The position numbers were made by a program, and so were the translations under genes. This document shows positions 1 through 53,200 of a DNA stretch of 64,000 bases, piece by piece. Under the pieces are notes generated by a model, which worked only from the letters and a program-made list of their open reading frames with translations, was not told the DNA's origin and made no database searches. Position 1 is the first letter of the stretch. Every line of letters starts with the position of its first letter. Source of the stretch: Callorhinchus milii (taxonomy: Eukaryota); contig NW_024704743.1 of the NCBI RefSeq assembly GCF_018977255.1, positions 28,584,001 through 28,648,000 of the forward strand, in the 5' to 3' direction.

Positions 1-354
1 ACCCATTGCCACATTTAACGTTATCCAAACCAGACTAAGAGTTTCACATGTCAACTACACATGGGAATGTCCCTTGTCTGGAATTGTGGATTACAGGAAT
101 TCCTTGTTAAAACAAGATCCAATAACTATCATTTGCAAAGAGATGAGAGCTTTTGGGCTAACAATCCCCCAGATGAAGTCATTACCATCCTGGCTGTTTT
201 TGACTGTCATGTTTGACTCCAAATACAGAGCGAAGAGCTATTGACATCAAAGGTAATACAGGGCAAACCTGCTATGATACAGTCGCCAGTGTCCAATAAT
301 TATAATAATCCTTGTATTTGATATCGCGCCTTATCACGTTGTTAGATGGTTCGT

Positions 355-676
355 GGAGTCCTGTAGCTCAGTGGTTAGAGCACTCGCTTTGCAAGCAAGA
401 GACCTGAGTTCAATTCCAGGCAGGGCGAAACCTTGGGCAAGTTTCCTTACTCCACACAGAGCCTAATAATAATCCCTCCAAAACCAAAAACAATAATAAA
501 TTGGTCATTTTCAATCTACGACTGTTTGTGGGACATTGCTGTGCGCAATTGGCTGCCGCGTTCGCCCACAAATATACAGTCAATTCACTTTACAGTGTGT
601 TCTGTGAAGCACTTTGGGCCGTCCTCCCGACGTGAAAAGCGCTATATCAAATGCAAGGATTATTATTATTATTATT
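355..676 (+). mobile_element. tRNA-derived SINE with Deu-like core and L2-type tail, full length, young subfamily
   Basis: A box (tagctcagtgg), B-box-like gttcaattcc, core tgtttgtgggacattgctgtgcgcaattggctgccgcg, (TAT)n tail. Near-identical to the copies at 21218, 22960 and 41601. Confidence 0.92.
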
Positions 677-1046
677 TAGATGTCACAAATTCTTCACAGG
701 ATACATTGTAAATTGGATTGACTGTGTTTTGTTGGCGAAACGTGACAGTCAATTTGCGCATAGCAATGTCTCATTGGTTCAGTGACAAATATCTCAGCTG
801 TGTGTTATAAGCCTCTGTGAAAATGGGGACTTCCTCTGCAAAGTGATGCCAGTAATGCCTACACATAGCTTTCAGGAAGTGATGTTAGTGGTATCTTGAT
901 GACCCAGAAGTCAACCTTTTTAGCATGGGAAGCTAGCTGGTTAGTGTCAGTTTTAATGCACTTAGTGCATGAGTATTCACAATGGATAATAATAATAATC
1001 CTTGCATTTGATATAGCGGCTTTTACATCAGAAAGACGTCTCAAAG

Positions 1047-1680
1047 CGAGGATGGGGGTGATAGGGTCACAGAGCCCGATGCGGGAGAGGACACGGGCTG
1101 CAGAGTTCTGGATGATCTGCAACCTGTGGAGGGAGGAGTTGGGGAGGCCGACAAGTAACGAGTTTACATAGTCAAGTCTCGATGCAATGAGTGCATGCAT
1201 GAGAGTTTCGGCGGCCTGTGGTGTGAGACAGTGGCGGAGCCGGGCGATGTTGCGGTGGTGGGGTAAGGCAGAACAGGTCATGGTATGGATGTGGGGTAGA
1301 AAGGATAGTTGAGGGTTAAACAAGTTGCCAAGGTTCCAGATAGCAGTGGTCCTGGAGTCAAGGGTGGAGGCAGAGAGATACAGTTGGGTGTCATCTGCAT
1401 ACATGTGGAAGTTGACCTTATGTCTGCGGATGATGTCACCAAGAGGGAGCATATAGGTATTGAAGAGGAGGGGAACAAGGACAGAGTCCTCAGGAGTGCC
1501 GCACGAGACGGTGCAGGGGCTAGAGGAGAAACCATTAGTGGAGATAAAGTGGAGGCATTGTGAGAGGTACGATCTGAACCAGCCGAGGACAGGGACTGGT
1601 GTCAAAGGCAGCAGAGAGGTCAAGGAGGATGAGGAGGCAGAGAGAACCCTGGGATTGTCCTTGGCCTCCAAGAACACCCT
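1047..1680 (-). mobile_element. L2 LINE internal RT fragment with deletions
   Basis: [23 protein letters not shown]. Confidence 0.9.
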
Positions 1681-1772
1681 CATTTCTTAAATTCAGTAAA
1701 AAAATTGTTGACAATCATCTTCCCAATAGGTTTTCAGCTGTTTTGGGGTATTCATAAATCATAATACCAAAT

Positions 1773-2033
1773 ACAATAACAACAACAACAAGATTCCATT
1801 TATTGAGCGCCTTTCACGTCAGGAGGACGTCCCAAGGCGCTGTACAGTTGGGTCAGGACCCGAGCAGGGGGGAAATGGTCAGGGTGAGGGGAGGGAAGGG
1901 AGGGAGCGAGGAGCGGGTAGAGAGTCGAGAGGGGAGCTGAAGGCACAGTCAAAGAGAAAGGTCTTGAGACCAGCCTTCTAGGAGGAAAGGGAGGAAGCAA
2001 AGCGAAGGCACTGGGGGATAGAGTTCCAGAGCC
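1773..2033 (-). mobile_element. L2 LINE 3' end
   Basis: Near-identical to 2223-2440. Confidence 0.9.
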
Positions 2034-2222
2034 AAATATTGGGGCATCTCAGAGCGCTTGGAGTGTCTCGGAGCAACAAGGTGTTGTATATAAAAATTGA
2101 GTCAGTAGGTTTCTGAGTAGGTGATGGGGGAATGTAAGTTTACAGACAGCTACATCCCAGTGTACCAGAACTGAAGAGAATATACATTGGCAGTGACCTG
2201 ATGACTTAAGCCGGCCCTTTTT

Positions 2223-3423
2223 ACAACAACAACACAACAACAACAAGATTCCATTTATAGAGCGCCTTTCACGTCGGGAAGACGTCCCAAGGCACTGTAC
2301 AGTTGGGTCAGGACCCAAGCAGGGGGGAAATGGTGAAGGGAGGGAAGGGAGGGAGCGAGGAGGGGGTAGAGAGTCGAGAGGGGAGCTGAAGGCACGGTCA
2401 AAGAGAAAGAATGTACTGGGGGATGGAGTTCCAGAGCCCAGGGGCTGAGAGGCTGAAGGCCCGGCCACCGATGGTAGGGCGGTTGGGGCGGAGGACGTGG
2501 AGCAGACCGGAGCCAGAGGAACGGAGGGTACGGGCAGGTAAGTAGGGGGATAGTAGGTCGGAGAGGTAGGAGGGAGCGAGGCCGTGAATGGCCTTGTAGG
2601 TGAGGATGAGGATCTTGAAATCAATCCTCTGGGGGATGGGGAGCCAGTGGAGGCGAGCGAGGGTGGGAGTGATGTGGTCCCGAAGTCTGGTGCGGGACAG
2701 TACACGAGCTGCAGAGTTCTGAATGACCTGCAGCTTATGGAGGGAGGTGGCGGGAAGGCCGACGAGGAGAGAGTTCCCATAGTCCAGCCTTGAGGTGATA
2801 AAGGCGTGGACCATGGTTTCAGCAGCGTGAGGGGTGAGGTAGTGCCGTAGTCTGGCGATATTCCGGAGGTGATGGAAGGCGGTGCCAGTTGTGGTGCGGA
2901 TATGAGGGAGAAAGGACAGCTCAGGGTCGAACAGAACACCGAGGTTCCTGACTGGCTTTGAGAGGTGGAGAGTGCAGCCTTGGATGCTGATGCTGTCAGC
3001 GCCTGAGGTGCGGAGGCGCTGACGTGAGCCAATCAGGAGTGCCTCAGTTTTACGCACGTTGAGCTGAAGAAAGTTGTCTCTCGTCCAGGACTCGATGTCG
3101 GACAGACTGTCAGGACATCGGTGATCGTGGAGTTAAGGGTAGAGGAGGAAAGGTAGAGTTGGGTGTCATCCGCATACATGTGGAAGTTAACCCCATGTCT
3201 GCGGATGATGTCACGAAGGGGGAGCATAGAGAGGGTGAAGAGGAGGGGACCGAGGACAGAGCCCTGAGGGACACCGCACAAGACAGTGTGGGGGCTGGAG
3301 GAAAAGCCATTCGTGGAAACAAAGTGAAGAAGGTGGGAGAGGTACGACCTAAACCACTCAAGGACAGGGCTTTGAAGGCTGAGGTGGGAGGACAAGCGGT
3401 GGAGGAGGATAGCATGGTCAACA
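2223..3423 (-). mobile_element. L2-clade LINE 3' part (RT C-terminus + 3'UTR + (TGT)n tail), young
   Basis: [40 protein letters not shown] and RLHWLP motifs, with frameshifts. Confidence 0.95.
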
Positions 3424-4050
3424 ATACAGTGATGTGATCAGTGACAACATGACGTGGAAGCGCTTACTGGCTTTTATGCCCATTATAAAGCTAGTTGGGA
3501 TTTTATAGGTCACAACTACCACATTATAATGGGGCTTTACCAATTAAAGAAATGGCCTATGCAGGTTAACAGGAACAACATTTTTTAAAAATAATATTTT
3601 TACTAAAGGTGGCATGTTGTTCAAACTTGGCAGGTTATTAATAGTAGAACTGCTAAAACTGGAAATGAGGAATTCTCTACTGAGAACAGTCAATACGACT
3701 TAATAAAAGGGTATTTGCAAACAAATGGATTTGGTCACTTTGAAAATTTATTTTCTTACCAATAAACTTTCACACTACAATGTGGTTGTTCACAGTAGAA
3801 GGTGCAATTAATTACAAATTTGCATGGGTTGTACCGGCTGATTCATGGTTTGAATGGTGCAATCAGAAACTATAGTTCTGGAGAGGAAAAGCTGATGGCG
3901 TTACTAATTTCCAAGAACAACCTGCGTTTTCTGGAACGTAGTGTTCATCCAAACAGAGACGACAACTCTAATCACCTTAATCAAGTTGCCATTCAAAGCA
4001 AATTTACAATTTGCATACATCAAAACAGAGCCACTCTGCCACTCTGGTCT

Positions 4051-4058
4051 ATACACAT

Positions 4059-4090
<32 letters not shown>
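4051..4090 (+). repeat. (AC)n(AT)n microsatellite
   Basis: Directly visible. Confidence 0.85.
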
Positions 4091-4445
4091 CTCCACTAGC
4101 ATGAGTTTGACACAAGCATTATGAATTAAAAATTTTACACATCTCTGCTGAAGTCACAAAAATGGTATTAATAAATATATTCAATATGCACACCACTTTC
4201 ACGTTCCACAACAAAACAAAAAAGGAAACTTATAATGCATATAAAAATCCCAGCATGGCGATAATAATGGTTTGTGAAGTCATAAAATAGCAAAACATTC
4301 ATTGTTCTATTCCTCACTATAATAAGGAAATAAAAATTAATAAAGTTTTGGTTAAATCTAACAGTGCTAGTTCAAAGCAAGTGTTAGAATCCTGTCCAAA
4401 TTGGGACATAAGCCATCTCTCCTAGTTCTATAAACACCAGTATAC

Positions 4446-4743
4446 CTGCATAGGCCACAGCACAATGCTAATATCCCCATTTACATCTGCCTGGGAGTAC
4501 ATTTCTCAATTTGCACCAGTAGTTTGGCCCACAAAATATGCAGTCAATTCACTTTATATTCTGTGAAGCGCTTTGAGACATTTAGAAGACATGATAAAGC
4601 GTTGTATCAAATTCAAGGAATATTTTTATTATTTTATCTCTGCAAACAGTATATCCTTCCTCCCCCGTCCATTCACCTGTGGTGTACCTCAAGCATACAT
4701 CAATGCCCCCCACTAGTGAAGGATAGCAGGGTTCTTTTTTTTC
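4446..4743 (-). pseudogene. NQO2: NQO2-like fifth coding exon, split by an insertion and carrying a frameshift and a stop
   Basis: ttttgctccag|G(A8)GA ACC CTG CTA TCC TTC ACT.. (5' half 4743-4710) and ..ACT ACT GGT GCA AAT TGA GAA ATG..TGG CCT ATG CAG|gtatac (3' half 4523-4446). Removing the insert, one TSD copy and two extra As gives 34 codons, EKRTLLSFTTGAN*EMYSQADVNGDISIVLWPMQ. TGA at 4508-4506. Confidence 0.88.
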
Positions 4744-4765
4744 CTGGAGCAAAACACAGCCTCAC

Positions 4766-5320
4766 ATACAACAACAACAAAATTACATTTGTATAGTGTC
4801 TTTCATGTTGGGGGGACGTCCCAAGGCGCTGGACAGTCAGTGTTTTGGACCTGAGCTGGGGAGGGTGGAGGGCAGGGGGGGAGGCAGGGAGATTGAAAGA
4901 TTGGTCGAAGAGGAGGGTCTTGAGATGGGTCTTGAAGGAGGCAAGGGAAGGGACGAGGCAGAGGGACTGCGGGATGGAGTTCCAGATGGTGGGGGCAGAA
5001 GGCCCGCCTGCCAATAGTAGGTCGAGCGAGGCAGGGGACATGAAACAGGCTGGAGCCCACTGAGAGGAGGGAGCGAGCAGGATGGTAGGGGTTAGGAGAT
5101 CGCAGAGGTAGGGGGGAGCAAGACCATGGATGGCTTTGAAGGTGAGAACCAGGATGCTGAATTGTATCCTCTGTGTGATGGGAAGCCAGTGGAGTCGGAC
5201 AAGGATGGGGGTGATGGGGTCACGGGGCCTGGTGTGGGAGAGGACATGGGCTGCAGAGTTCTGGATGATCTGCAACCTATGGAGGGAGGAGTTGGGGAGG
5301 TCAACAAGCAATGAGTTTGC
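4766..5320 (-). mobile_element. L2 LINE 3' fragment
   Basis: [18 protein letters not shown] and tail. Confidence 0.9.
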
Positions 5321-5687
5321 ATAGGTAAGTATCTTTGTGAAGTGGAAACTATTTCATCAATTGTAAATGGAAAGAATACAGCAGGTATGCAATCACAAGA
5401 ATAAATCACAGTTTCTAAATACTAAACATTCTTAATTTTTTTTGAAAAATAGGAAAAAAGAGCCTGAGAAATACTGGATCATTTAACTTTGGAAATACTA
5501 ACACAACAAAGTTGATTATTAATGGGGCAACATTTTCATTGACAACCACAAAACTAAAACTATGGGAAATCAAAATATTTCTGGTATTCTTAAAATAGCT
5601 CATAGCATTTTCTGAAATCAGGATATGGCGTTCTGTGAACTGTTCATTCACACTTTGATGGCTTTCCTTGCAATTTTGGCTATTGTA

Positions 5688-6750
5688 GAGTCCTGTAGCT
5701 CAGTGGTTAAAGCACTACTTGTCTTGCAAGCAAGAGGACCAGGGTTCGATTCCTGGGCAGGGCAAAACGTTGGGCAAGTTTCCTTACTCCACACACCTCT
5801 GTTTGCCTAGCAGTTAGTAGGAACCCAGTTATTAGTCAACTGGTGGATCACTTTTCCGGTGGTAATAATCTCTTCAAAATCAAAATAAAATAATAATAAT
5901 TTGGTCACTCAATCCACAACTGTTTGTAGGGCACTGCTGTATGCAATTGGCCTCCGCATTTCGCCCACAAAATATACAGTCAATTCACTTTACAGAGAAC
6001 CTCTGTGTCCTGTTCGACCCTCAACTGCCGTTCATCCCCCACATCCATGCCATGTCCCGCAACCTTGCCCGGCTCCGCCACTGGCCACCGAGACCCTCAT
6101 CCACGTGTTCATCACATCCAGGCTCGATTACGCAAACCTGCTAGTTGGCCTCCCCAACTCCTCCCTCCACAGGCTGCAGATCATCCAGAACTCTGTAGAT
6201 GGTGCCCTCTCCCGCACGAGTTTCCGCGATTTTATCACCCCCATCCTTGCCCGACTACACTGGCTCCCCATCACTCAGAGGATACAGTTCAAAAATCTGG
6301 GTCCTCACCTTCAAGGTCCTCCACGGCCTTGCTCCTCCCAACATCTGTGGCCTCCTACCCCCTACCACCCTATCTGCTTCCTCCGCTCAGCGGGCTCCAG
6401 CCTTCTTCACCATTGGCGGTCAGATCTTCAGCCTCTCTGCACCCATCCTCTGGAACTGCATCCCACAGTTGCACTGCCTCGCCCCTTCCCTTGCCTTCTT
6501 CAAAATCTGTCTCAAGACCCTCCTCTTCGACCGTACCTTCGGTCACCCCTACCTTCCCCACCCTACACTCCTCCTGAACCTGATCCCAACTACCAGGTCG
6601 TGGGCAGATCCCTGACTGTTCAGTGCCTTGAGACATCTTCGAGGTGCTGTAAAAATAGGGAAGATTTCTAGATTTCTATATTCTGTGAAGCGCTTTGAGA
6701 CATATCGAAGACCTGATAAGGCACTATATCAAATTAAAGTATTATTATTG
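5688..6750 (+). mobile_element. SINE (5688-5995 and 6677-6750) split by an L2 3' fragment (~5996-6650)
   Basis: The SINE stops at caattcactttacag and resumes at tatattctgtgaagcgc. The insert encodes [25 protein letters not shown]. Confidence 0.85.
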
Positions 6751-8236
6751 TTTTGTGAATCAATCAAATAGGACTTCCGCAAGTTGCAATTAGCTTGTTT
6801 TCAATTCAGTAATCCCCTAGTGTTCACCATGGAAATACATTTGCATTACACATTTAAATATTTGTAATGTTATGCATATTAAACCCAATTAAAATCACAA
6901 AAGCTACAAGCAAATCATGTCTTGTGAACAACCACCTGTAATTAATAATATATTTGAAAAGGTGCCTGACTCAAAAAAGGACTGACTTACCCGAGAATTA
7001 AGAGTTGGTGTTAGCTGCAACATGCTTGCTCCAGTGTTTCCGATCAGTATACAAGAATGTATGATTCATTTTGTTCTTAGTCTCCTTACAACTAGCGGAA
7101 TTAGATTGTTGCGATATCTCAACTTGCTTTAGATGGCTTTAGGAAAATACGTAATGTCTACTTTATTTTTATGCTTCCACAACAAATTACTGTCAATGTT
7201 TAAATCAGGTGTGAGACAAAAGATTAGAAAGTGTACAGATGCTTTTGCCAGAAAGTCAATTCAAACAGCTGGAATATAATTGCAAGCAAAGTGAATTTGT
7301 GAGTCTCTCTGAATCACTCTACTGTTGCATCACTTCCACCAGCATAAGATCAGTATAAATGCAAAAGTATGTTAGGACTTAAAATAGTGGGAGTTGTTTT
7401 TTATTCTGTTTATATTGATTCTAGCTGGAAATTCATAGCAGTCAGTAGCCCTTAGCGATTAAAGTGGTTCCATCTCTGAAACCTGGTCCAGCCAGCCTGG
7501 CTCATTGACAAGACTTGGAGAGACAGGCCAGTCACTGGGGATACGTTTTTTTTTACCAATCAGCTCCTGTTAACCCCGCAAGCCAAAGCCCTAATGAGTA
7601 GGGTGATCCTAGCTGGACAAGCAGTGGGAAATCTTGCCACACAGTGCTGAAAATGCTTTTAATGGCTTTGATGCAGTTTTAGTTGGTTAAACTCCAACAC
7701 ACACTCTGGGATTCCTTAACCCTTGGTGCTGGCCAACCTACACCTAATACTCTCCGGATTTAGTTGAGGAGGATGGTTCCTTCAGGAAAGTGTGCACGTT
7801 CCATTCTAACCACGGGAATCCCCGTGTGTAAGTGGCAAGCATGGAACTGTTTGGTTAGGATAATCTTATGGTAATGGGTTTCTACATGTGACAGACACCT
7901 GGCTAACAAAAAAAACTGGGTAATTAATTGTTGTTTGGAAAGACACTAGACCTTTACAGGAAGGACTGAGAGCAGTGTAAGTAACCCATTCCTTCCAATT
8001 GGATGCCAGTTACCTCAGCCCACAGTAAGAAAAGTATCTTGGTTCTCAGAGAGAGAGTATCACAGGGATGTGAATAAAAATAGGAAATAAAAACAGTTCT
8101 TGGCACTTCAATTCTGTACAAGACAATATAATTCACTTAACGTCCTGGTGGGAACTGAAGCAGTAACAGGTTTATTAATTTTTCAATCTTTATTGTTGTA
8201 CGTGTAAGGAATTTCAATATTTCAAATGGGCTGTAA

Positions 8237-8570
8237 TTATAATAATAATTCTTGCATTTGATATAGCGCCTTATCACATCTTTGAGATGTATCAAAATGC
8301 TTCACAGAATATACTGTGAAGTGAAATGCCAATTGCGCACAGCAATGTCCACAAACAGTTGTGGACTAGGTGACCAATTTAAATGATTTTTAAGAAATTA
8401 TTACCCCCAGAAAAGCGATCCGCCAATCAATTAACAACCGGGTTCCTAATTACTGCTGGCAAACAGAGGTGCGTGGAGTAAGGAAACTTGCCCAGCATTT
8501 CGCCCTGCCAGGAATCAAACCCAGGTCTATCGCTTGTAAGGCGAGTGCTCTAATTACTGAGCTACAGGAC
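8237..8570 (-). mobile_element. tRNA-derived SINE (long-middle variant)
   Basis: Same family. Confidence 0.88.
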
Positions 8571-8804
8571 AGGACTGTAGTACTGTAACTAGTCATTTTA
8601 AGATTTGGAACTTCAATACTTCTGAAACACATTGTGAACTGTTCATGGAGCTACTGATTAAACATAATGCTTGTTCAGTGTTTTGTTAAAGATTTATTGA
8701 TGTTCTTTATTACCCATTACCCATTATCAAATTGTGGATTTTAGATGAGAATCAAGAGGTCTTTAAAATGGATATTTGACTCAAAGGAAATACTGAATCC
8801 AACT

Positions 8805-8918
8805 GTTGAAGTAACCTAAATTGTAACACTTTGAGATTCCATAGGCCATTCCTTCAACAAAAACTTGGCCTATCCAGCTGTTCAGAATTGCAGGTACGTT
8901 TGACCAATAAAGAGAAAA
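8805..8918 (-). pseudogene. NQO2: NQO2-like fourth coding exon (114 nt), donor displaced by 1 nt
   Basis: ctcgtctctttgcag|FSLYWSNVPAILNSWIGQVFVEGMAYGISKCYNLGYFN, compared with the family motif FPLYWxxVPAILKGWxDRV. After 38 codons the sequence is A-GT rather than GT. Conserved P, KG and DR residues are substituted. Confidence 0.88.
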
Positions 8919-9279
8919 CTGCAAAGAGACGAGTGAAACGAAGATGCTATTTACTCCTTATTAGCAGCCATTCAAACCAAAACTAGCTGATTACTCACAG
9001 CCTTATCATTTTAGATCATCTTTTCCGGTATCGACTTCCTGTAGGCCGCAGCTACCAAGAGAGTGACATAAACAAGAGCCAACTTCTTATGTTATAATAA
9101 TAATAATCCTTGCATTTGATATAGCGCTTTTCACATCTTCTAGACGTCTCAAAGCGTTTCACAGAATACACTGTAAAGTGAATTGGCTGTATATTTTGTG
9201 GGCGAAACTCAGCAGCCAATTGCCCACAGCAGTGTCCCATGAACAGTCGTGGATTAAGTGACCAAATCATTATTATTTA

Positions 9280-10093
9280 GTAAACAAAACACAAAATACT
9301 GCAGATGCTGGAAATCTGAAACAAAAACAGAAGTCGCTGGGAACACTCGGCAGACCAGGCAGCATCTATGGAGAAAGAAAGATGAGTCAATGTTTTGGGT
9401 CCACGACCCTTCGTCAGAACTGGGGCATATTGGGAGGGAGAGGCTTTTAGGGGCTAACAGAGAGAGGGGAGGCAGGGCAAAGAAGGCAAAGCAGAGAATG
9501 GGGTGGAGGAGAGGGTATGATGGGTTAAACAGGTTTTAATGATGCAAAACAAAGGGAGGGGCATTGCAACAAAACAGGGGAATAGATGTGTTAATACACA
9601 TTATTTCAAGCGGGACAGCGATTTACGTGTACTACCACCAACGTAGTTTACAGCATTTGCTGCTCACGATGTGGTCTCCTCTACATTGGGGAGACCAATC
9701 GCAGATTGGGTGACCGATTTGCAAACACCTCCATTCTGTCCATAAGCACAACCCTGAGCTTCCGGTTTCTTGCCACTTCAACTCTCCCTCCCACTCGCAC
9801 TCTGACTTCTCCATCCATGGTCTCCTACGCTGTTCCAATGAACCACAGCGCAAGCTCGAGGAACAACACCTCATTTATCTGCTGGGGACCTTACAGCCCT
9901 CTGGCCTCAATATTGATTTCAATCATTTCAGACCATAACAGCTCATCTCCCCCCTCCCCCTCTTCTGTGTCCATTACCACATCACCGTTTCTCTCTCTGG
10001 TCTGCCTGTTTTGTTGCAATCCCCCCCCCCCCCGTTTTGCATTATTAACACCTCTACTCCCCTGTATTGTTCCCAACGACTTCTGTTTTTGGT
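9280..10093 (+). mobile_element. Penelope-like element remnant (inverted pLTR part + GIY-YIG endonuclease C-terminus) with 13-bp TSD
   Basis: 9604-9938 encodes, with one frameshift, FTCTTTNVVYSICCSRCGLLYIGETNRRLGDRFA..HFN..RKLEEQHLIYLLGTLQPSGLN. An inverted terminal segment lies at 9284-9580. Flanked by tcattattattta at 9267-9279 and 10094-10106. Confidence 0.88.
9385..9421 (-). ncRNA. Degenerate hammerhead motif (GAAA to AAAA)
   Basis: Minus strand AGTT-CTGACGA-A-GGGTC GTG GACCC-AAAAC-ATT-GACT. Confidence 0.6.
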
Positions 10094-11649
10094 TCATTAT
10101 TATTTATTTTTTGGAAGGAATTATTACCCTGGAAAGTGATCCACCAATCGACTAACAATCAGGTTCCTACTTACTGCAAGGCGTGTGGAGTAAGGAAATT
10201 TGCTCAATGTTTTGCCCTGTCAGAAATTGAACCGAGGTTCTCTCGCTTTCGAGGCAAGTGCTCTAACCACTAAACTACCGGACTCCACAAACACTTTGTT
10301 TCTCTCATACACACAGTTTTCATTAATTTAAGACTAAATATGTTACTTTCACAACTACAACTGTTGTAACCAATGAGTTCATGACTAATATTCCATTCAT
10401 TAATGATACTACTGTATATTCATGAAACAAAATGCTTAAGAGGAAACCTCCAATAATTCAAAGTTCAACAACTGTAAAAGCTGAAAAAATTCCAAACCAA
10501 CAGTGACCCAGAGTAAGTAATAAATGGACAATGCTGAGAATGCAATAAAACAAAACAATAAAAAATATTTAATAGATCATAAAGTTCAGGACAAAATCCA
10601 CACAAAAAAAACTTGTTAACTTAAAATTTAATTTTAAAATGAAGCTAGTTTTCCTATTACCTGATAATGGAACAATTTAACGATAAGCAAGAAAAAAACA
10701 GGTACTGATGTGCACTCAGAGGTACATACACACAATTGCTTATATCTTTAAAGAAAATTGAATTAAGTCAGATTTTGACCTATACTATCACAGAAATTGG
10801 ACCACATTGTAAATACATTTCCAGACATTTACTTCTGAACCTAAAGTTCTTTTTCATATAAAATGCAGAAAGACAGTTTGGTAGCAGTCAGAAGACAGCA
10901 AACATGTTCCTGTTTTATCCAGTGCAAAATGTTCTTGAAGAACATTGACACAATATTAAATTAGCTTTGTTTTAACTAATACAGAACAGAACTAATTATT
11001 TGCACTAACTGGGATTTGTCTTTTTCTGGATAAACATTGGAGGTAATTAGACATCACATAAAATACAAATTAGCTGCAGTGCTAACTAAAAAATGTTCCA
11101 CAAAGCTTCATATGATACCACACAATACTAGCTCGTTTTTTACTGCCTTCTCTCTCATATACTTTCTTCCTGTCTCTCTGAATCACTCTAACTTTCTATG
11201 TGTGTGTCTCTTTTCTCCCTGGCTCTAATCCTATATTGCAAAAAATTACACAGAAGCAAATATTTTCAAGCTGATGGTTTCAAAGAAACATCCAGTTTTG
11301 CACATGAATTAAGTTGTTGGAAGAGTTGGGTCCTGTCCTCACCCACTGTTTGCACACAAGTAGGTAAAGCAGATAAAGGTACTGGATGGAAAGCAAGAGT
11401 GGTTTCCTGAACTTATTTGTCCCTCTCTAAATTGCAATGCAGAAGCCAATTGTAGAGAATACATATTGTGTTGAACGCAAACCAGGATTTCAAACTGAGA
11501 CTTTCCTGTCTATAAAGCTCTGACATCACTTGGTACACATACTGAGTCATTTTGCTTTCCCTATGGATACAGTTTATTTTAAGATATCACCATAATGACC
11601 CTACCCCTTTAATGTGTTGTACAAAAAACAATTTCAATCTATATAATAC

Positions 11650-11780
11650 CTGAAAAATAACAAAATCTGCTTCTTTGAGCTTTTTCTGTTTTTCTACAAC
11701 ATCTTTGGATAATATTCCTTTTTTGTAAGCTTCACTTATTTCAACTCCATAGTTAAAATGACTTGGATCATGCACATCTC
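11650..11780 (-). pseudogene. NQO2: NQO2-like third coding exon (131 nt, open)
   Basis: ttttttatttttgcag|GA GAT...TTT CAG|gtatta; (G)DVHDPSHFNYGVEISEAYKKGILSKDVVEKQKKLKEADFVIFQ. Size and the EADxVIFQ end are typical of NQO genes. Confidence 0.93.
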
Positions 11781-12393
11781 CTGCAAAAATAAAAAACAAG
11801 GTATTTGAGTTATGGAGACAACATTATAACAAAGTACATTATACCTAATCTCACCAGTGAACACACATCCAAAAAACATCATTGCCCAACTTTTGTAGCT
11901 CTCCAACTGGGGTGGATTCTAAATTAGAAGTTAACCGTGTGTATCTCAGGGAAGCACAAACCAGTGTTAATTTGGACTGTGCACATTCTAGTCACTTTAT
12001 AAAGCCCAGAGCAAATGGAAACAAAAGTGAACATAAATCAGACCATTGATTTCATTGTGTCCCAAGGAACTGTTCAACCAATGTCAATGCAACATTATTT
12101 TAACTCTGTACCTTCTATTAAAAATCACCCCTTGAGCCAGAGTGTAATATTGTATAATCCCGATGTGTCTTATTCTATTTCACTGATTTATCTACAGCAA
12201 TTTTTTTTCTTTTGGGATGCATATTTCAATCAGCATAAAATCTTTACCCGCTCATCAAATGACTACCCATTGCAGAGCTGTATCTGTTTTTCTGCTACAA
12301 GCTCAACAGTGACCTCTCATGCCCATTTTCTATCACTGCATATATTCAGGAGACGTTTTGTCTTTGCTATTGAGAAAGCATGATTTAACTATT

Positions 12394-12790
12394 CAACAAC
12401 AACAACAACAACTTGGATTTATATATACAACGCCCTCCACACCGGACGGCGTCTCAGAGCGCTTCACAGTGACGGATCCCGGGGCTGAGGCAGGGGGAGG
12501 GGGAGGAAGGTGACCAAAGGCACGGTCAAAAAGAAAGGTCTTTAGCCGAGACCTGAAAGTAGGAAGAGAGGGGGCGAGGCGAAGGGACTGAGAAAGGGAG
12601 TTCCAGAGACTCGGGACATAGTGGCTGAAGGCACGGCCACCAATCGTGGAGCGGAGGATTGAGGGGACAAGGATTTGGCCAGACAAGGTGGAGCGAAAGC
12701 AACGGGCACTGTTGTGAAGAGAGAGGAGGTCAGAGAGTTATGGGGGTGCAGAGGAGTGGGATTTGAAGACAAGGGTGAGGATCTTGAAGT
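12394..12790 (-). mobile_element. L2 LINE 3' fragment (different subfamily)
   Basis: IGGRAFSH..LWNSL..LKTFLF and (TGT)n tail. Confidence 0.85.
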
Positions 12791-13383
12791 AAAAACAATT
12801 CACATTGTTTGATGAAACAGTGTTGCTTACCTTAACACTGTTGAATGCAATGATTAATATAATCTGTTCACGTTTACTTTAAGAACACAAATCAAAAGAT
12901 CATTTGGCTGAATGGAACCTAAAGAGATTTTCTAGTCATCTCAACTAGTCAGAGCCATTATTCAATGGTCATAATTAATGTGAACTTTAACAATATTCAA
13001 TAATCATCGCAAGGAGGTTATGATCGGAGGTAAAGTTGTCGGTCTGTCTGTACTATTAATAATGCAGTTATATTGGAGCTTGATCTGGGGTGGGAGTTGA
13101 GGGGGGTGGGATGGAGAAAGATGAAAAATGAAATGAAAAATGAAAGGTAAAGTTTGAAAACTCCGTAGTGCTTGGCCATTTCCTGTACCATTTCCTAGAG
13201 CCACACCACCACCAAAAGGCTGATGAAATGTACATAAATTTTTAATCGACTACATCCCTGAGTTCACAACATTAGAATTTTGAAGTTCTCAAATTGTTCT
13301 CAAAAGATGTTCTTCCTTTGGAATAAGTACATGTGGCAGGTGCTAATCCTGGAACATTCAATGGAAACTTATAGAAATCCCAC

Positions 13384-13545
13384 CTACAACATAATTTCTT
13401 GTGACCACTGCATTGAGATTCCTGGAATATAAGTCAGATACCCGAACAGTGCATCCCCACAAGACCAGTTCTTAAATTCCAACATCCTTTAAGGCTCCAT
13501 TGAAAGATTGTGGTTCTTGGAAGGTGACAATGATGGGGATTTATC
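13384..13545 (-). pseudogene. NQO2: NQO2-like second coding exon with premature stop
   Basis: Translates IIVTFQEPQSFNGALKDVGI*ELVLWGCTVRVSDLYSRNLNAVVTRNYVV(G)|gtggga. In-frame TAA at 13474-13472. The 5' end is degraded with no AG at the expected acceptor, so the start coordinate is approximate. Confidence 0.88.
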
Positions 13546-13813
13546 AACACAATCAAACCTGGCTTTAACAACCTCTCGGAGTACTGGGCCAAAAAGGTTT
13601 TTATATATGAGTGGCCTCTGAGTAAGTTGGTGTGCAAAATGGGCTGTTCCTGGGTTGTTAACAGGTGATGGCTGATGATGGCTGTGATTCATTTAATAGG
13701 TTAAACTGTATTTATAATCCTTGGATTTGATATAGCTCTTTAACATGCCTAAACGTGAATTCCTTGTGGAATTACAGCCCTGAGTTCAATAGGAATACAG
13801 CCCTGGATACAGC

Positions 13814-14064
13814 CTGGGTTCGATTCCAGGCAGGGTGAAACCTTGGGCAAGTTTCCTTACTCCACACGCCTAATAATAATCCCTCCAAAACAAAACAATA
13901 ATAAATTGGTCATTTTCAATCCACGACTGTTTGTGGGACACTGCTGTGCACAATTGGCTGCCGCGTTTTGCCCACAAATATATGGTCAATTCACTTTACA
14001 CTATATTCTCTGAAGCACTTTGAGATGTCTAGAAGATCCGAAAAGCGCTATATCAAATGCAAGG

Positions 14065-14150
<86 letters not shown>
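13814..14150 (+). mobile_element. 5'-truncated SINE
   Basis: From the B box to the expanded TAT tail. Confidence 0.88.
14066..14150 (+). repeat. (TAT)n microsatellite, expanded SINE tail
   Basis: About 28 perfect units directly after the SINE end aaatgcaagga. Confidence 0.95.
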
Positions 14151-14151
<1 letters not shown>

Positions 14152-14414
14152 CGTGCAGCCAGACATCTCTTTACACTAAAATGGTCAACTTCCAAGTCAT
14201 ACTTTTCATCATGTCAAATGCAAAGATTATTATTAGTTATTTTTATTATCTAATTATTATTTGATCACCGTGACCACATCCTGCTTTACTGCGCAAGGCC
14301 ATTTTAGATTCCTTCACTGAACAAGCACAAAAGAGCTGTTTTGTACTATCACATGTGTTTCGATTTTATGGATCCCAAACACCAAGTTACAACGGGACCA
14401 CACTATATAGAAAT

Positions 14415-14474
14415 AATGCACAATAAGAATGATTATCAAATTGCAGTAAATGCACAATAAGAATGATTAACAAA
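14415..14474 (+). repeat. Short tandem duplication (aatgcacaataagaatgatta x2, period 34)
   Basis: Directly visible. Confidence 0.8.
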
Positions 14475-14807
14475 CATGCAATAATTATTTGTATTTTTGT
14501 AACATGCAACAATTATTCGTATTATTCAACAACAAATAATTTAAAGTCCAGGAACGTGTCAGGAATCAAACTGCTGGGAGTTTATCAAGCTGCAAGACCT
14601 TTGTATTAGGATAGCAGTTCACAACACTGACCTAAAACAGATACAGCCAAGCTAGCTTCAAACATGTTCCATACACAAAACATGTTCTAGTTTCAGGGTC
14701 AGTTCACTCTCTAGTGAACAAATACATTTTGTTAATTGTGGGAAGTTGCACAACATTCAGCATTGATTCAGCATCCCGATATAACAATGTCTAATTTTGA
14801 TTCTTAC

Positions 14808-14862
14808 CTGCCATTCAAAACTTGTATTCCAGTAAGCTCTTCACCCAACCTATGTGTAATTT
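14808..14862 (-). pseudogene. NQO2: NQO2-like ATG-bearing exon (5'UTR + ATG GCA G)
   Basis: Minus strand reads ctgtttgtctccaaag|...TTTTGA ATG GCA G|gtaaga. ATG is at 14814-14812, giving 7 coding nt and a phase-1 donor, as in NQO2 (M-A-G). Confidence 0.65.
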
Positions 14863-42681: not shown

Positions 42682-42920
42682 AGGAAAGGAAAGGAAAGGA
42701 AAGGAAAGGTGCAGTTACCTCTGCAAAGCGGAGGAAGGAGAGAGAGAGAGAGACACACACACACACACAGACACAGAGAGACAGAGACGCGCAGTCCTGG
42801 CGCAGCGCAGCGCTGCTGCAGATGGAGGTGATGGAGATGGAGGTGATGATGGAGGAGGAGGTGATGGAGGAGGAGGAGGAGGAGTAGGCGATGGAGATGG
42901 AGGTGATGGAGGTGGTGGTG
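42682..42920 (+). repeat. Simple repeats: (GGAAA)n, (AG)n/(AC)n and (GGA/GAT/GGT)n triplets in the putative 5'UTR
   Basis: Directly visible. Confidence 0.9.
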
Positions 42921-43136
42921 GACGTCAATCAGCCCCCGGGGGGCAGAGGCAGCCGAGTGGAAAATAATCATCAGCCAAAAAAACGACACCAAAACAAAAC
43001 AACACAACACACAGCACAACACAGCACAGCCCTCCCTCTCCCCTCCCTCTACCCCCTCCCCCCTCTCCCCCCCCCCTCACCCCTCCCTCCCCCTCTCCCC
43101 CCAAAAACAAAAACTCCCGACTGCGACATTGACGCA

Positions 43137-43175
43137 ATGGCACCGCAGAAAAGACCGAACGACGGAACGAATAAG
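43137..43175 (+). CDS. Probable first coding exon of an unidentified protein-coding gene (MAPQKRPNDGTNK)
   Basis: ATG in strong context (gcaATGG), 13 codons, then AAG|gtgagg phase-0 donor, located at the 3' end of the only CpG-rich island in the window. Gene identity not recognised. Confidence 0.6.
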
Positions 43176-43234
43176 GTGAGGAATTCCTTTAACTCGTAAA
43201 CATTTACTGGATTCGTCGAGAGCCGCGGAAAGGC

Positions 43235-50200: not shown

Positions 50201-53200
50201 AGTTTTTTTTAACAAAATGTTCACAATTAGCCTTCATCTGAGGAGTTCCTGAAAAGGTGGCTTGCTTATTGTTTTGATGAAGTCTGTGATATGTGCGGGT
50301 GCAGTTTGGGGTATTTTTACATTTGAAATAGATCTCCGACGTATGCTGTTGGTCCAGGCATAGCTCTTGCCAGATATTCACCCCGATAAGTTACCACTGC
50401 ACTTGTTCAAGGTTTAGAGAGATGCAATCGGAGTAGGTGAGATGTTTCTTAAATTTGCACCGTTACCCTGGATATTTTTGTATTCTGATGTTTGTTGATT
50501 GAATACTATTGCCTTTTTATCAGTAGTTGTCTAATTTGAGTTGTTCGTCTATTTTGTTATGTGTGTTTGAATGAGTCCATAATTCAGTATGTCTGAAATG
50601 TTCTTGGTTGCGTTTCATATCGTAGTAGCTTTGCTAGATTTCCAAAGAGATGACATAAATGGGTATGGTTAGAGATAGGAAAACTGTATTTGCTTATTTA
50701 TTTAAGGTGTGGTTCACTTTCAGTGAAGTTGCATGAAGTGCAATTTATGATTGCTAAGCAGTCCTGACAGATTCTTGATAGCGGCTTGACCCTCGAAACT
50801 GTGATTGCTAGCTGTATTGAACAAGAAGCTGTACTCAGTACTAAGTGCTCTGGGATGTTACCCTGAGTGATGAGCTCTGTATAAATGGTTGTTGTTGTTT
50901 TTGTTGTTTTTGTGGTAGCCTACAGCAGATTTCCACCAATGTGGTCAAGGGCACACTGAAACCCAAGTGGTGCTGTACGATTAGCACCTAGTGTAGGAAA
51001 GTGTCCCCTTCACACCAGCCTAATAATAAGTGTTCAGATTTTGTTGCTTTATTTAGGATGTTAAGAAAATACGAGGTTTCAATGGTTTCTGTAAATTTTG
51101 CAAATTCTATTCGTGGATTCTGTTTTGGGAGTAAATTCTTCCGGTTGTTTTTTCCGGTGAAGTTCTTAGCACAGGTTTCAGGTTACTTTGTGCACGTGCA
51201 TTCAATACTAAGAAACTTTCAGGCAACAAACATTTTATTCCCTCTTTTCTCACCTACTTCAATCAAAGGTGATATTTCACTATTATTTAATAAGCATATT
51301 AACAAACAGAGCTTTTCACCAATAATAACATGTTTCCACAACCCATGGCAATGGCACATCTTAGCTGTAGGTAAGACCTGAGGTTTGTTGGACTGAAGAG
51401 TCCATGTTGTGTTATAATATCTTGTTTTCTACCAAGAATGCATTTAAAATCATAGTTCTCAGTATCGGATTTCCAGATTTTTCTCACTGACTAACAAAGA
51501 AAAATCCACCAGAACTGTTGGAACTTCTCCCCAATTTTATTAAAACAAATATTTCTGGCCCTGTCCATTAATCAAAAGTCCCCATTGAATCTTTCTGACA
51601 AATACAACAACCATCTGCTTCCCTAAGAGCTCTGAAAAATCTCCCAGCCTTTTACCTGCTATTTTATCAAATAATGTAAAATCAATGCACTGTATGTCTG
51701 AGGTTCGTTCTTTATGTGAGCTTCTATTCATTTCTTTCTTGTTGTTTGTCTTACATTCAATGCACTTTTCAGAGTGTTTTGTACAGAAAGTGGCATTTCC
51801 TGATATAGCGAATGCAGAGACCTTGTCCCTGGTCTTAACCATCGTTAAAAGATCTTGGGAAATTAAACAACATTTTGAACAGTTCTCTAAGAAAACAGAA
51901 ATGTGAAACTTGATAATAACATTTGCTTTCCTACAAGTTTATAAATTGAGATATGTGAAATTACATAATTTCTTAAAAGGTCTATTGATTATGTAGATCA
52001 ACTATAAAGAAACTATGACTGCAATGCTTTAAAAAGTAATGGATTCATGAAATAGATGATCATCACATAAATATTACAAATTAATTACTTAACATCCTGT
52101 TCTGCTGTTCAGTAATGAACGGACAAAAGCTTACTTCAGGGATTTATTACCTCATTAAATTCTACTTTAACTCTTCAAGATGCCAGCAACATATCTGTAC
52201 AAATAATCACTGAGCTTTGAAAGTTCTCACCCCAAAAAAAACAAAGTGTAAAAACATTTAAACCTAAACGTTGGTCTTATTCCTAACTGCAGTAATACAA
52301 ACATTAAGAAATTAGTTTTAAAAAATGCTTTAAGTTTGAAAATGGAAAACTAAAGTTGGTGGTTAAAATATTTTTAAAAATACAACCATGATTATAAACT
52401 GTTTTGGACAAATAATCTAATTACATTAGGAGAGCTGAGGATTTTATGAGATGGCATTTATTTTTAACAACTATATTAGTTTTAACTGAAGTTCCAACAA
52501 TTGTGAATCAAGATGCAAATTATGCAATTTTATTTTTTAGTAACTTTTGTGTGATCCTGAGAAAGATCCCTTTAATAGCAGGTTTACTATCAAAATCTAT
52601 GGAACCTTGTGGTTCAGAAACTAGTAGAGTTCAAAATGGCAGTGCTGAAGTACTCACCCTTGCACTGATAGCTTCAGTTATCCTGCGTTGTCTATGCTGA
52701 AGTGTTTAACTGCTGCATTTAAACCAATTTAAGAAAAGCACAACCAGCTTGACTGCTTTCAATCATTCCACCCTCCCCAACTAATTGTAGTCCAGTTATT
52801 TTTATTATGTTGACTTTAACACCATTTCTCCCTATGAGCAATCAAATGATTCGGACGCAGAATTGTTTTGGTTAATAGTTAAATATTACTAATAATAAAT
52901 AATCAGATCACCAGACATGACTACCTTTTTAATAAATGTTGTGTAACCAAAGGCATAACGAAAGATACTGACAGTTGGCCTCAGATTTGTGGCACACAAA
53001 AACTTGTATTTATACACCGTAATTGCAAGAAAAAAACCTTCACAGAGTAAAATTGATTACAAATGAGGTAGGTGAATGTTATTCTGTAGGCAAACATTGC
53101 AGGTAAATTGCACCAGCAACATCCTAAAAACATTCAACACTAAATTGAGTTTCAATAAGCTAAAAGTTTTGGAGTTGAGTTTAGATGAGTAGAGAAATGG

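Follow-up and report, generated by a model that had tools for sequence, protein, structure and literature searches.

In the available part of PMC9065289, NQO2 is described as lost in ray-finned fish and in Xenopus and as decaying in some frogs, the duplication that separated it from NQO1 is dated to the bony-fish ancestor, and NQO1 is stated to be present in all vertebrates. In the accessible parts of PMC9065289 and PMC11586865 the history of NQO2 is read as an amniote specialization after a bony-fish duplication ~450 million years ago. NQO1 was reported to be pseudogenized in nearly all cetaceans (bioRxiv 10.64898/2026.05.21.726804, partial text), and its loss therefore has a precedent. Here we analyzed 64,000 nucleotides (nt) of the elephant shark Callorhinchus milii (contig NW_024704743.1 of assembly GCF_018977255.1, forward-strand positions 28,584,001 to 28,648,000; this whole stretch is referred to as the window), in which positions 4,446 to 14,862 hold the remains of an NQO-family gene. 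The remains are real and represent a unitary pseudogene with multiple disabling lesions. Pseudogenes of this type are nothing unusual, and this one is most likely NQO2. It is probable that the NQO2 orthologue died in place in the elephant-shark lineage and that NQO1 was lost separately, without leaving a trace.

The words 'shark' and 'Callorhinchus' do not occur in the main text of PMC9065289 as far as it was accessible, whose tree figures may hold sharks, and 'shark' does not occur in the accessible text of PMC11586865. In a further source, available in part, the 'NQO2 orthologues' listed number 16, range from lamprey to human and may include a shark (bioRxiv 10.64898/2026.03.17.712426). Such names are unreliable, since abalone and Lingula proteins bear them too. 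Within the literature covered, from which subscription journals were mostly excluded, we found neither an account of the locus nor a report of any vertebrate that lacks both NQO genes.

Exon structure of the remnant

The remnant consists of five collinear coding exons on the minus strand, and their sizes and phases are those expected of the NQO family. The features, in window positions, are:

14808..14814, minus strand: coding part of exon 1, with ATG at 14814-14812, reading ATG GCA G, phase 1
13384..13548, minus strand: exon 2, 165 nt; acceptor lost, 5' end eroded, three stops, donor GTGGGA intact
11650..11780, minus strand: exon 3, 131 nt; open frame, acceptor and donor intact
8805..8918, minus strand: exon 4, 114 nt; FP changed to FS and LKGWMDR to LNSWIGQ, donor displaced by 1 nt
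4718..4743, minus strand: 5' part of exon 5; acceptor at 4745-44, A8 run (+2 nt), weak hidden Markov model match at 4741-4682
4524..4717, no strand: insert within exon 5, made of a direct-repeat copy, a near-unique part of ~70 nt and a repeat resembling a short interspersed element (SINE)
4446..4523, minus strand: 3' part of exon 5; TGA at 4508-06, donor GTATAC at 4445 intact
1..4445, no strand: stretch toward RIPK1, the expected place of the last coding exon, none detectable; ~60% repeats

Exon 1 keeps an intact donor (GTAAGA at 14807) and encodes the start MAG, which is also the start of tetrapod NQO2 and of the public model P0001; coordinate 14862, where the locus as first delimited ends, is 48 bases upstream of the ATG. 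With eight proteins of the NQO1 and NQO2 types as queries, tblastn recovered exons 2-5 in order, with no comparable match elsewhere in 264 kb, and in this search space the dog NQO2 matches to the four exons had E values of 7e-11 to 4e-5. Frameshift-aware profile scores were 74-111 compared with shuffled maxima of 26-38, and the alignments stop exactly at the predicted donors. Based on the tblastn results and the shuffled scores, the exon matches are not due to chance. An earlier reading of the sequence only, which had proposed minus-strand exons of ~165, 131, 114 and 102 nt in NQO order with matching phases, is borne out by tblastn and by our base-by-base check. The Flavodoxin_2 domain (PF02525) is recognized in P0001 (E 3e-14, 53.6 bits, cut-off 27), and structures of NQO2 and NQO1 in the PDB are matched with E values of 1.6e-9 to 3e-7.

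Disabling lesions

The expected acceptor of exon 2 (13550-49) is GT instead of AG and is followed by two in-frame stops, TGA at 13546-44 and TAA at 13543-41, which the sequence-only reading had missed; the 5' end of this exon may be replaced sequence. Exon 2 also contains an internal stop (TAA 13474-72), and 11 of its 22 conserved columns are altered, H12F among them. In exon 4 the expected donor at 8804-03 is AG, and GTTGGA sits one base further. In exon 5, an A8 run at 4742-35 brings the length to 104 nt, instead of the normal 102, and there is an in-frame stop (TGA 4508-06). Checked base by base, every lesion of this kind that had been listed before was present, i.e., the TAA at 13474-13472, a lost acceptor near 13545, a 1-nt donor shift at 8804, a +2 poly-A slip at 4742-4735, the exon 5 insertion and the TGA at 4508-4506. 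Among the FP/LKGW/DR residues, whose loss had also been listed, P103S, K114N, G115S, D118G and R119Q are changed, and F102, L113 and W116 are kept.

The exon 5 insert is flanked by imperfect 8-bp direct repeats, ACTAGTGG at 4717-10 and ACTACTGG at 4523-16, which would represent a target-site duplication. Besides one copy of the 8-bp repeat, it holds a near-unique part of ~70 nt and a common repeat truncated at its 5' end (4522-4637), which shows 76-85% identity to other copies, up to 24 of them in the window, and up to 159 matches in further examined loci. Its tail and its abundance suggest a SINE-like element. In the other part of the insert (4640-4712, plus strand) one frame reads TCGVPQ, resembling a reverse-transcriptase motif of a long interspersed element (LINE) elsewhere in the window, so that LINE and SINE sequences may have been joined in the insert.

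We did not detect the last coding exon, which should encode residues 174-230 with the metal ligands, in the 9.4 kb downstream, where the best score of 28.2 does not exceed the shuffled mean of 29.5. This sixth exon, whose loss the sequence-only reading had not listed, was apparently deleted. In total there are four in-frame stops and two frame disruptions, the intact frame and the flavin adenine dinucleotide (FAD)-binding motifs of an active enzyme are absent, and the three splice paths examined terminate after 43, 91 and 98 residues. Altered conserved columns number 23 of 70 scorable ones in the fossil and 0-12 of 72 (median 1) in 30 intact proteins, a comparison biased in favor of the latter, as the columns were defined on the same 30 proteins. 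A crude neutral conversion, with no rate applied, would place 0.14-0.18 substitutions per site since the death of the gene.

The locus is predicted to make no enzyme, because no tested splice path exceeds 98 residues and neither the C-terminal half of the flavodoxin fold nor the metal site can be encoded. Residual transcription of exons 1-3-4, as low-level spliced read-through, is plausible since the exon 1 and exon 3 splice sites survive. A probable course of events is that selection lapsed and that the acceptor loss, the stops, the displaced donor and the homopolymer slip then accumulated; the retroelement insertion and the deletion of the last exon would also belong to the later decay.

NQO2, NQO1 or the ancestor of both

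Directly downstream of the remnant, on the same strand and starting just past the low end of the window, are exons of RIPK1 (E 3e-25, with RIPK1 the only gene among the matches listed, and with the RHIM matched), and RIPK1 is followed by an exon of a clade-B serpin. WRNIP1 is found at C2:29.79 Mb, 1.2 Mb away on the opposite side, with geminin and DUF4566. We take the neighborhood of human NQO2 to be RIPK1, SERPINB and WRNIP1, and compared with this order a rearranged NQO2 synteny is supported.

A maximum-likelihood tree was built from 38 rows cut to residues 1-173 (the fossil, 18 NQO2, 14 NQO1 and 5 outgroups), chosen from ~300 proteins; four of the NQO1 or outgroup rows were classed by similarity. 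The fossil is placed as sister to all 18 tetrapod NQO2 with support of 95/86. In blastp the top 45 matches are all of NQO2 type, the best of them at 186 bits compared with 164 for the best NQO1, in a pool rich in NQO2.

Several observations weigh against this assignment. BPHL was not seen beside RIPK1 in the 80 kb downstream of the window, which is the range covered, with no genome-wide search. The fossil branch is long (0.77), and the tree contains no shark, ray, coelacanth or lamprey among its nameable rows, so that key taxa are missing; monophyly of NQO1 (teleost plus tetrapod) is weak at 45/9 over residues 1-173. The approximately unbiased (AU) test does not reject the fossil with NQO1 (p 0.102), with tetrapod NQO1 (p 0.191) or outside all bony-vertebrate NQO (p 0.102). 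From 12 NQO2-diagnostic columns (positions 6-173), four are NQO2-like, four NQO1-like and four neither, so on the diagnostic residues the sequence-only reading has less backing than it claimed. No cartilaginous-fish relative is named among the 120 matches listed of 6916 in a profile search, which is no evidence of absence. Because the AU tests reject no alternative and the diagnostic residues split 4:4, the name NQO2 rests mainly on synteny, and an NQO2-type gene in this lineage is backed by RIPK1 and ambiguous by sequence alone.

One possible option, which we regard as unlikely, is that a single ancestral gnathostome NQO stood beside RIPK1, that NQO1 arose by a later duplication on the bony-fish stem and that the fossil is co-orthologous to both genes. 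A single loss would then account for the whole absence of NQO; the placement outside bony-vertebrate NQO at p 0.102, the 4:4 split and the lack of an NQO remnant near NFAT5/NOB1 (see below) fit it, as does the dating of the duplication to the Euteleostomi ancestor (PMC9065289, available part). Yet the best tree places the fossil with NQO2 at 95/86, and the published date is a minimum, drawn from a set whose text, where accessible, names no shark. NFATc-type genes on C2, C14 and C18 weakly fit a paralogon that predates jawed vertebrates, in which the NQO1 and NQO2 regions would be whole-genome-duplication paralogues, and this would speak for two ancestral genes. Overall, we infer that the fossil is the orthologue of NQO2 and not a co-orthologue of the two genes.

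Search for other NQO copies

Another question that is raised by the fossil is whether a working NQO gene exists elsewhere in the genome. In six of six genome-wide protein searches of one assembly there was no credible locus for a working NQO1 or NQO2, and the queries exon 3, dog NQO2, teleost NQO1 and frog NQO1 each led to this locus only. Last-exon queries gave four weak matches genome-wide (E 0.0098-4.4), which we judged to be chance: the one at C2:125.55 Mb belongs to the tail of a LINE-like repeat and contains a stop, the one at C8:11.36 Mb uses another frame of a long open exon, and the 80 kb examined there contain no other NQO exon, and those on C13 and C1 have E values of 1.5 and 4.4. 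A match of P0010 is repetitive and due to chance, and the ESM Atlas returned bacterial flavodoxin-fold clusters only, under 0.9. These searches have limits that count against a true absence, as the genome search scores the best candidates only, in a single assembly, and a genome search with PF02525 found nothing, this locus included, and is uninformative for split exons.

We assume that the human NQO1 place lies between NFAT5 and NOB1/WWP2. In the elephant shark NFAT5, WWP2, CYB5B, PSMD7, COG8 and NOB1 are grouped on C14 (C14:4.88-5.34 Mb), and no NQO trace was found in this 460-kb interval, where the best profile score is 0.3 bits compared with 24-50 bits for the fossil exons. No gap run interrupts the interval, which holds six single Ns; the one after NFAT5 lies within continuous sequence. 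Further genes there look by eye like KARS1, TMED6, DHX38, ADAT1, IST1, DHODH and ATXN1L. Compared with what we take to be the human order, a KARS1-like gene follows NFAT5, a TMED6-like gene abuts WWP2 and COG8 is beside NOB1. A breakpoint at the NFAT5 3' end could be a route of NQO1 removal, and the absence of NQO1 appears to be true.

It is very unlikely, in our estimation, that the fossil is a dead duplicate or an NQO1-type gene and that a working NQO1 or NQO2 sits in an assembly gap or in an unscored candidate. The absence was seen in one assembly by a candidate-limited search, and grouping with NQO1 is not rejected by the AU test; on the other side, the same searches found decayed exons at 34-54% identity, so that an intact gene should show, the expected NQO1 interval is contiguous and the RIPK1 synteny is the ancestral place of NQO2. 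A hidden NQO1 would leave the identity of the pseudogene unchanged. The introns are retained at the ancestral locus, and as no intact copy was found elsewhere, a unitary loss is favored over a dead duplicate, two options that had been left side by side before. The genome-wide check proposed earlier thus recovered the fossil exons and no intact NQO2 elsewhere, within the one assembly.

Public gene models and other samples

The public models with a sequence identical to that of exon 3 all come from Callorhinchus milii, and one of them is named NQO2 (ribosyldihydronicotinamide dehydrogenase). They are:

XP_007887954.1; UniRef100 A0A4W3K8A5, A0A4W3K8A8, A0A4W3JY49, A0A4W3JY52, A0A4W3KIZ8: public models

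These six models (P0001-P0006) come from another assembly and are listed as proteins of 91-162 amino acids; they cover exons 3-4, have non-homologous ends and conflict at both ends. All show the same exon 4 residue losses and depart from the NQO frame at the exon 4 donor. Exon 5 and the stretch of exon 2 with the stop are left out of all six, and two start just after that stop. Exons 1-3-4 join in frame and equal the 91-amino-acid model P0001 except for one residue. When longer proteins were searched with P0001, the sole match was the locus's own model. The locus had been called hidden before, yet it was only partly so, as an older public model already called the 91-amino-acid piece NQO2. The exon 3 acceptor (window 11775-11782, minus strand) is a tandem CAG-GAG (NAGNAG), and the models begin exon 3 at either acceptor; use of both would also account for a contig of sequencing run X5 whose end is exactly at 11779.

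Four of 24 listed sequencing runs were compared with the locus. Three samples of organism A are represented, and one of their runs could be the assembly source; run X9 is from organism B, a second species. The table holds the best-supported rows, in which repeats are dominant at 80% likeness, and the rows displayed cover exons 3-5, without exon 2 or the splice joints. Contigs of X1 and X2 over 4100-4551 show 0 differences, the TGA and the insert junction included, and contigs of X2 and X5 cross exon 4 with 3-4 substitutions and zero gaps. In some samples 11652 G>A (plus strand) changes the last exon 3 codon from CAG to TAG; this allele is carried by X5 (the sole contig there, depth 63.5) and by part of X2 (5.69 of 23.4 depth), and it is absent from X1 and X9. 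The invariant G115 is Ser in our sequence and Gly in P0001. Damaging alleles, i.e., the TAG at 11652 and S/G at G115, are still segregating, which the sequence-only reading had also missed. In X9, alignable unique intron 4 sequence (6870-7006) has 17 listed differences in ~140 bases, and its reads reach the end of exon 3, covering 11652, which makes a cross-species comparison of the locus possible.

We find it highly improbable that an exon 1-3-4 transcript was exapted as a functional 91-amino-acid peptide or as a regulatory RNA acting, for example, on the downstream RIPK1. The join is in frame, a contig of a run guessed to be RNA ends at the exon 3 acceptor (11779), and conserved columns are changed in 3 of 15 cases in exon 3 compared with 20 of 55 elsewhere, but this difference is not significant (Fisher p 0.35). 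A stop allele is segregating in exon 3, the six models conflict at both ends, and the peptide would be without the first FAD-binding strand and anything beyond residue 139. Assembly errors that disrupt an intact gene can be practically dismissed, because the exon 5 stop and the exon 4 donor defect recur in other samples, which refutes this idea for exons 4 and 5 and confirms the exon 5 TGA in X1 and X2 contigs, and the models from another assembly share the residue losses, two of them beginning after the exon 2 stop, even though the exon 2 lesions, its stop included, fall outside the displayed read rows.

Other features of the region

In the window at 42800-43176 (plus strand) there is a GGA-rich leader with an ATG at ~43138 reading MAPQKRPNDGTNK, followed by a GTGAGG donor, after which (TG)n repeats form a long tract. 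This is likely the first exon of a gene facing away from the NQO2 fossil, and no further exon was recognized in the next 25 kb. At 50990-51940 overlapping open frames of 100-130 amino acids occur on both strands in non-repetitive AT-rich DNA with no Pfam match, perhaps an old transposon remnant. Downstream of the serpin, at C2:28.517-28.521 Mb (minus strand), a zinc-knuckle gag-like frame is followed by an Ig-domain frame, in what is probably a retroelement region.

Discussion

What the sequence-only reading had not foreseen is that NQO1 seems to be absent too. Callorhinchus milii may have no working copy of NQO1 or NQO2, and this would hold both for an NQO2 orthologue that died in place and for a single ancestral gene. 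That the species is a natural double knockout and that NQO1 and NQO2 split before jawed vertebrates, probably at the whole-genome duplications, has in our view a somewhat better than even chance. A fossil at the NQO2 locus of a cartilaginous fish would add an independent loss, and it would either make the duplication older or mark the pre-duplication gene. If true, ancestral reconstructions that omit cartilaginous fish have a misplaced root, and a vertebrate without either enzyme means that two-electron quinone reduction by the NQO family is dispensable. Database entries that present the locus as a protein are misleading.

The mollusc NQO of Haliotis rubra (P0025) has an NQO1-like C-terminal extension, and its sequence suggests that the extension is ancestral and was lost in NQO2; the opposing view is that it was gained after the duplication (PMC11586865, available part).

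The published losses in ray-finned fish, frogs and cetaceans, as far as those sources were accessible, are likewise cases in which a quinone reductase of aquatic vertebrates was lost or decayed in particular lineages. They concern one paralogue per lineage, whereas in the elephant shark, a lineage unmentioned in the accessible text, both seem absent. NQO1 (DT-diaphorase) has the same layout of exons 1-5 and the same fold as the fossil, with 42-48% identity, but the fossil is on C2, away from the NFAT5/NOB1/WWP2 locus on C14. NQO2 (NRH:quinone oxidoreductase 2, quinone reductase 2, the MT3 site), which is found in tetrapods and coelacanth, has the exon sizes and phases of the fossil, ~50% identity to it over residues 1-173 and the RIPK1/serpin/WRNIP1 neighborhood in common. 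Unlike tetrapod NQO2, the fossil carries multiple disabling lesions, misses the last exon with H174/H178/C223 and shows the NQO1 or ancestral state at the tetrapod NQO2-specific sites A21, N134, F138 and I167.

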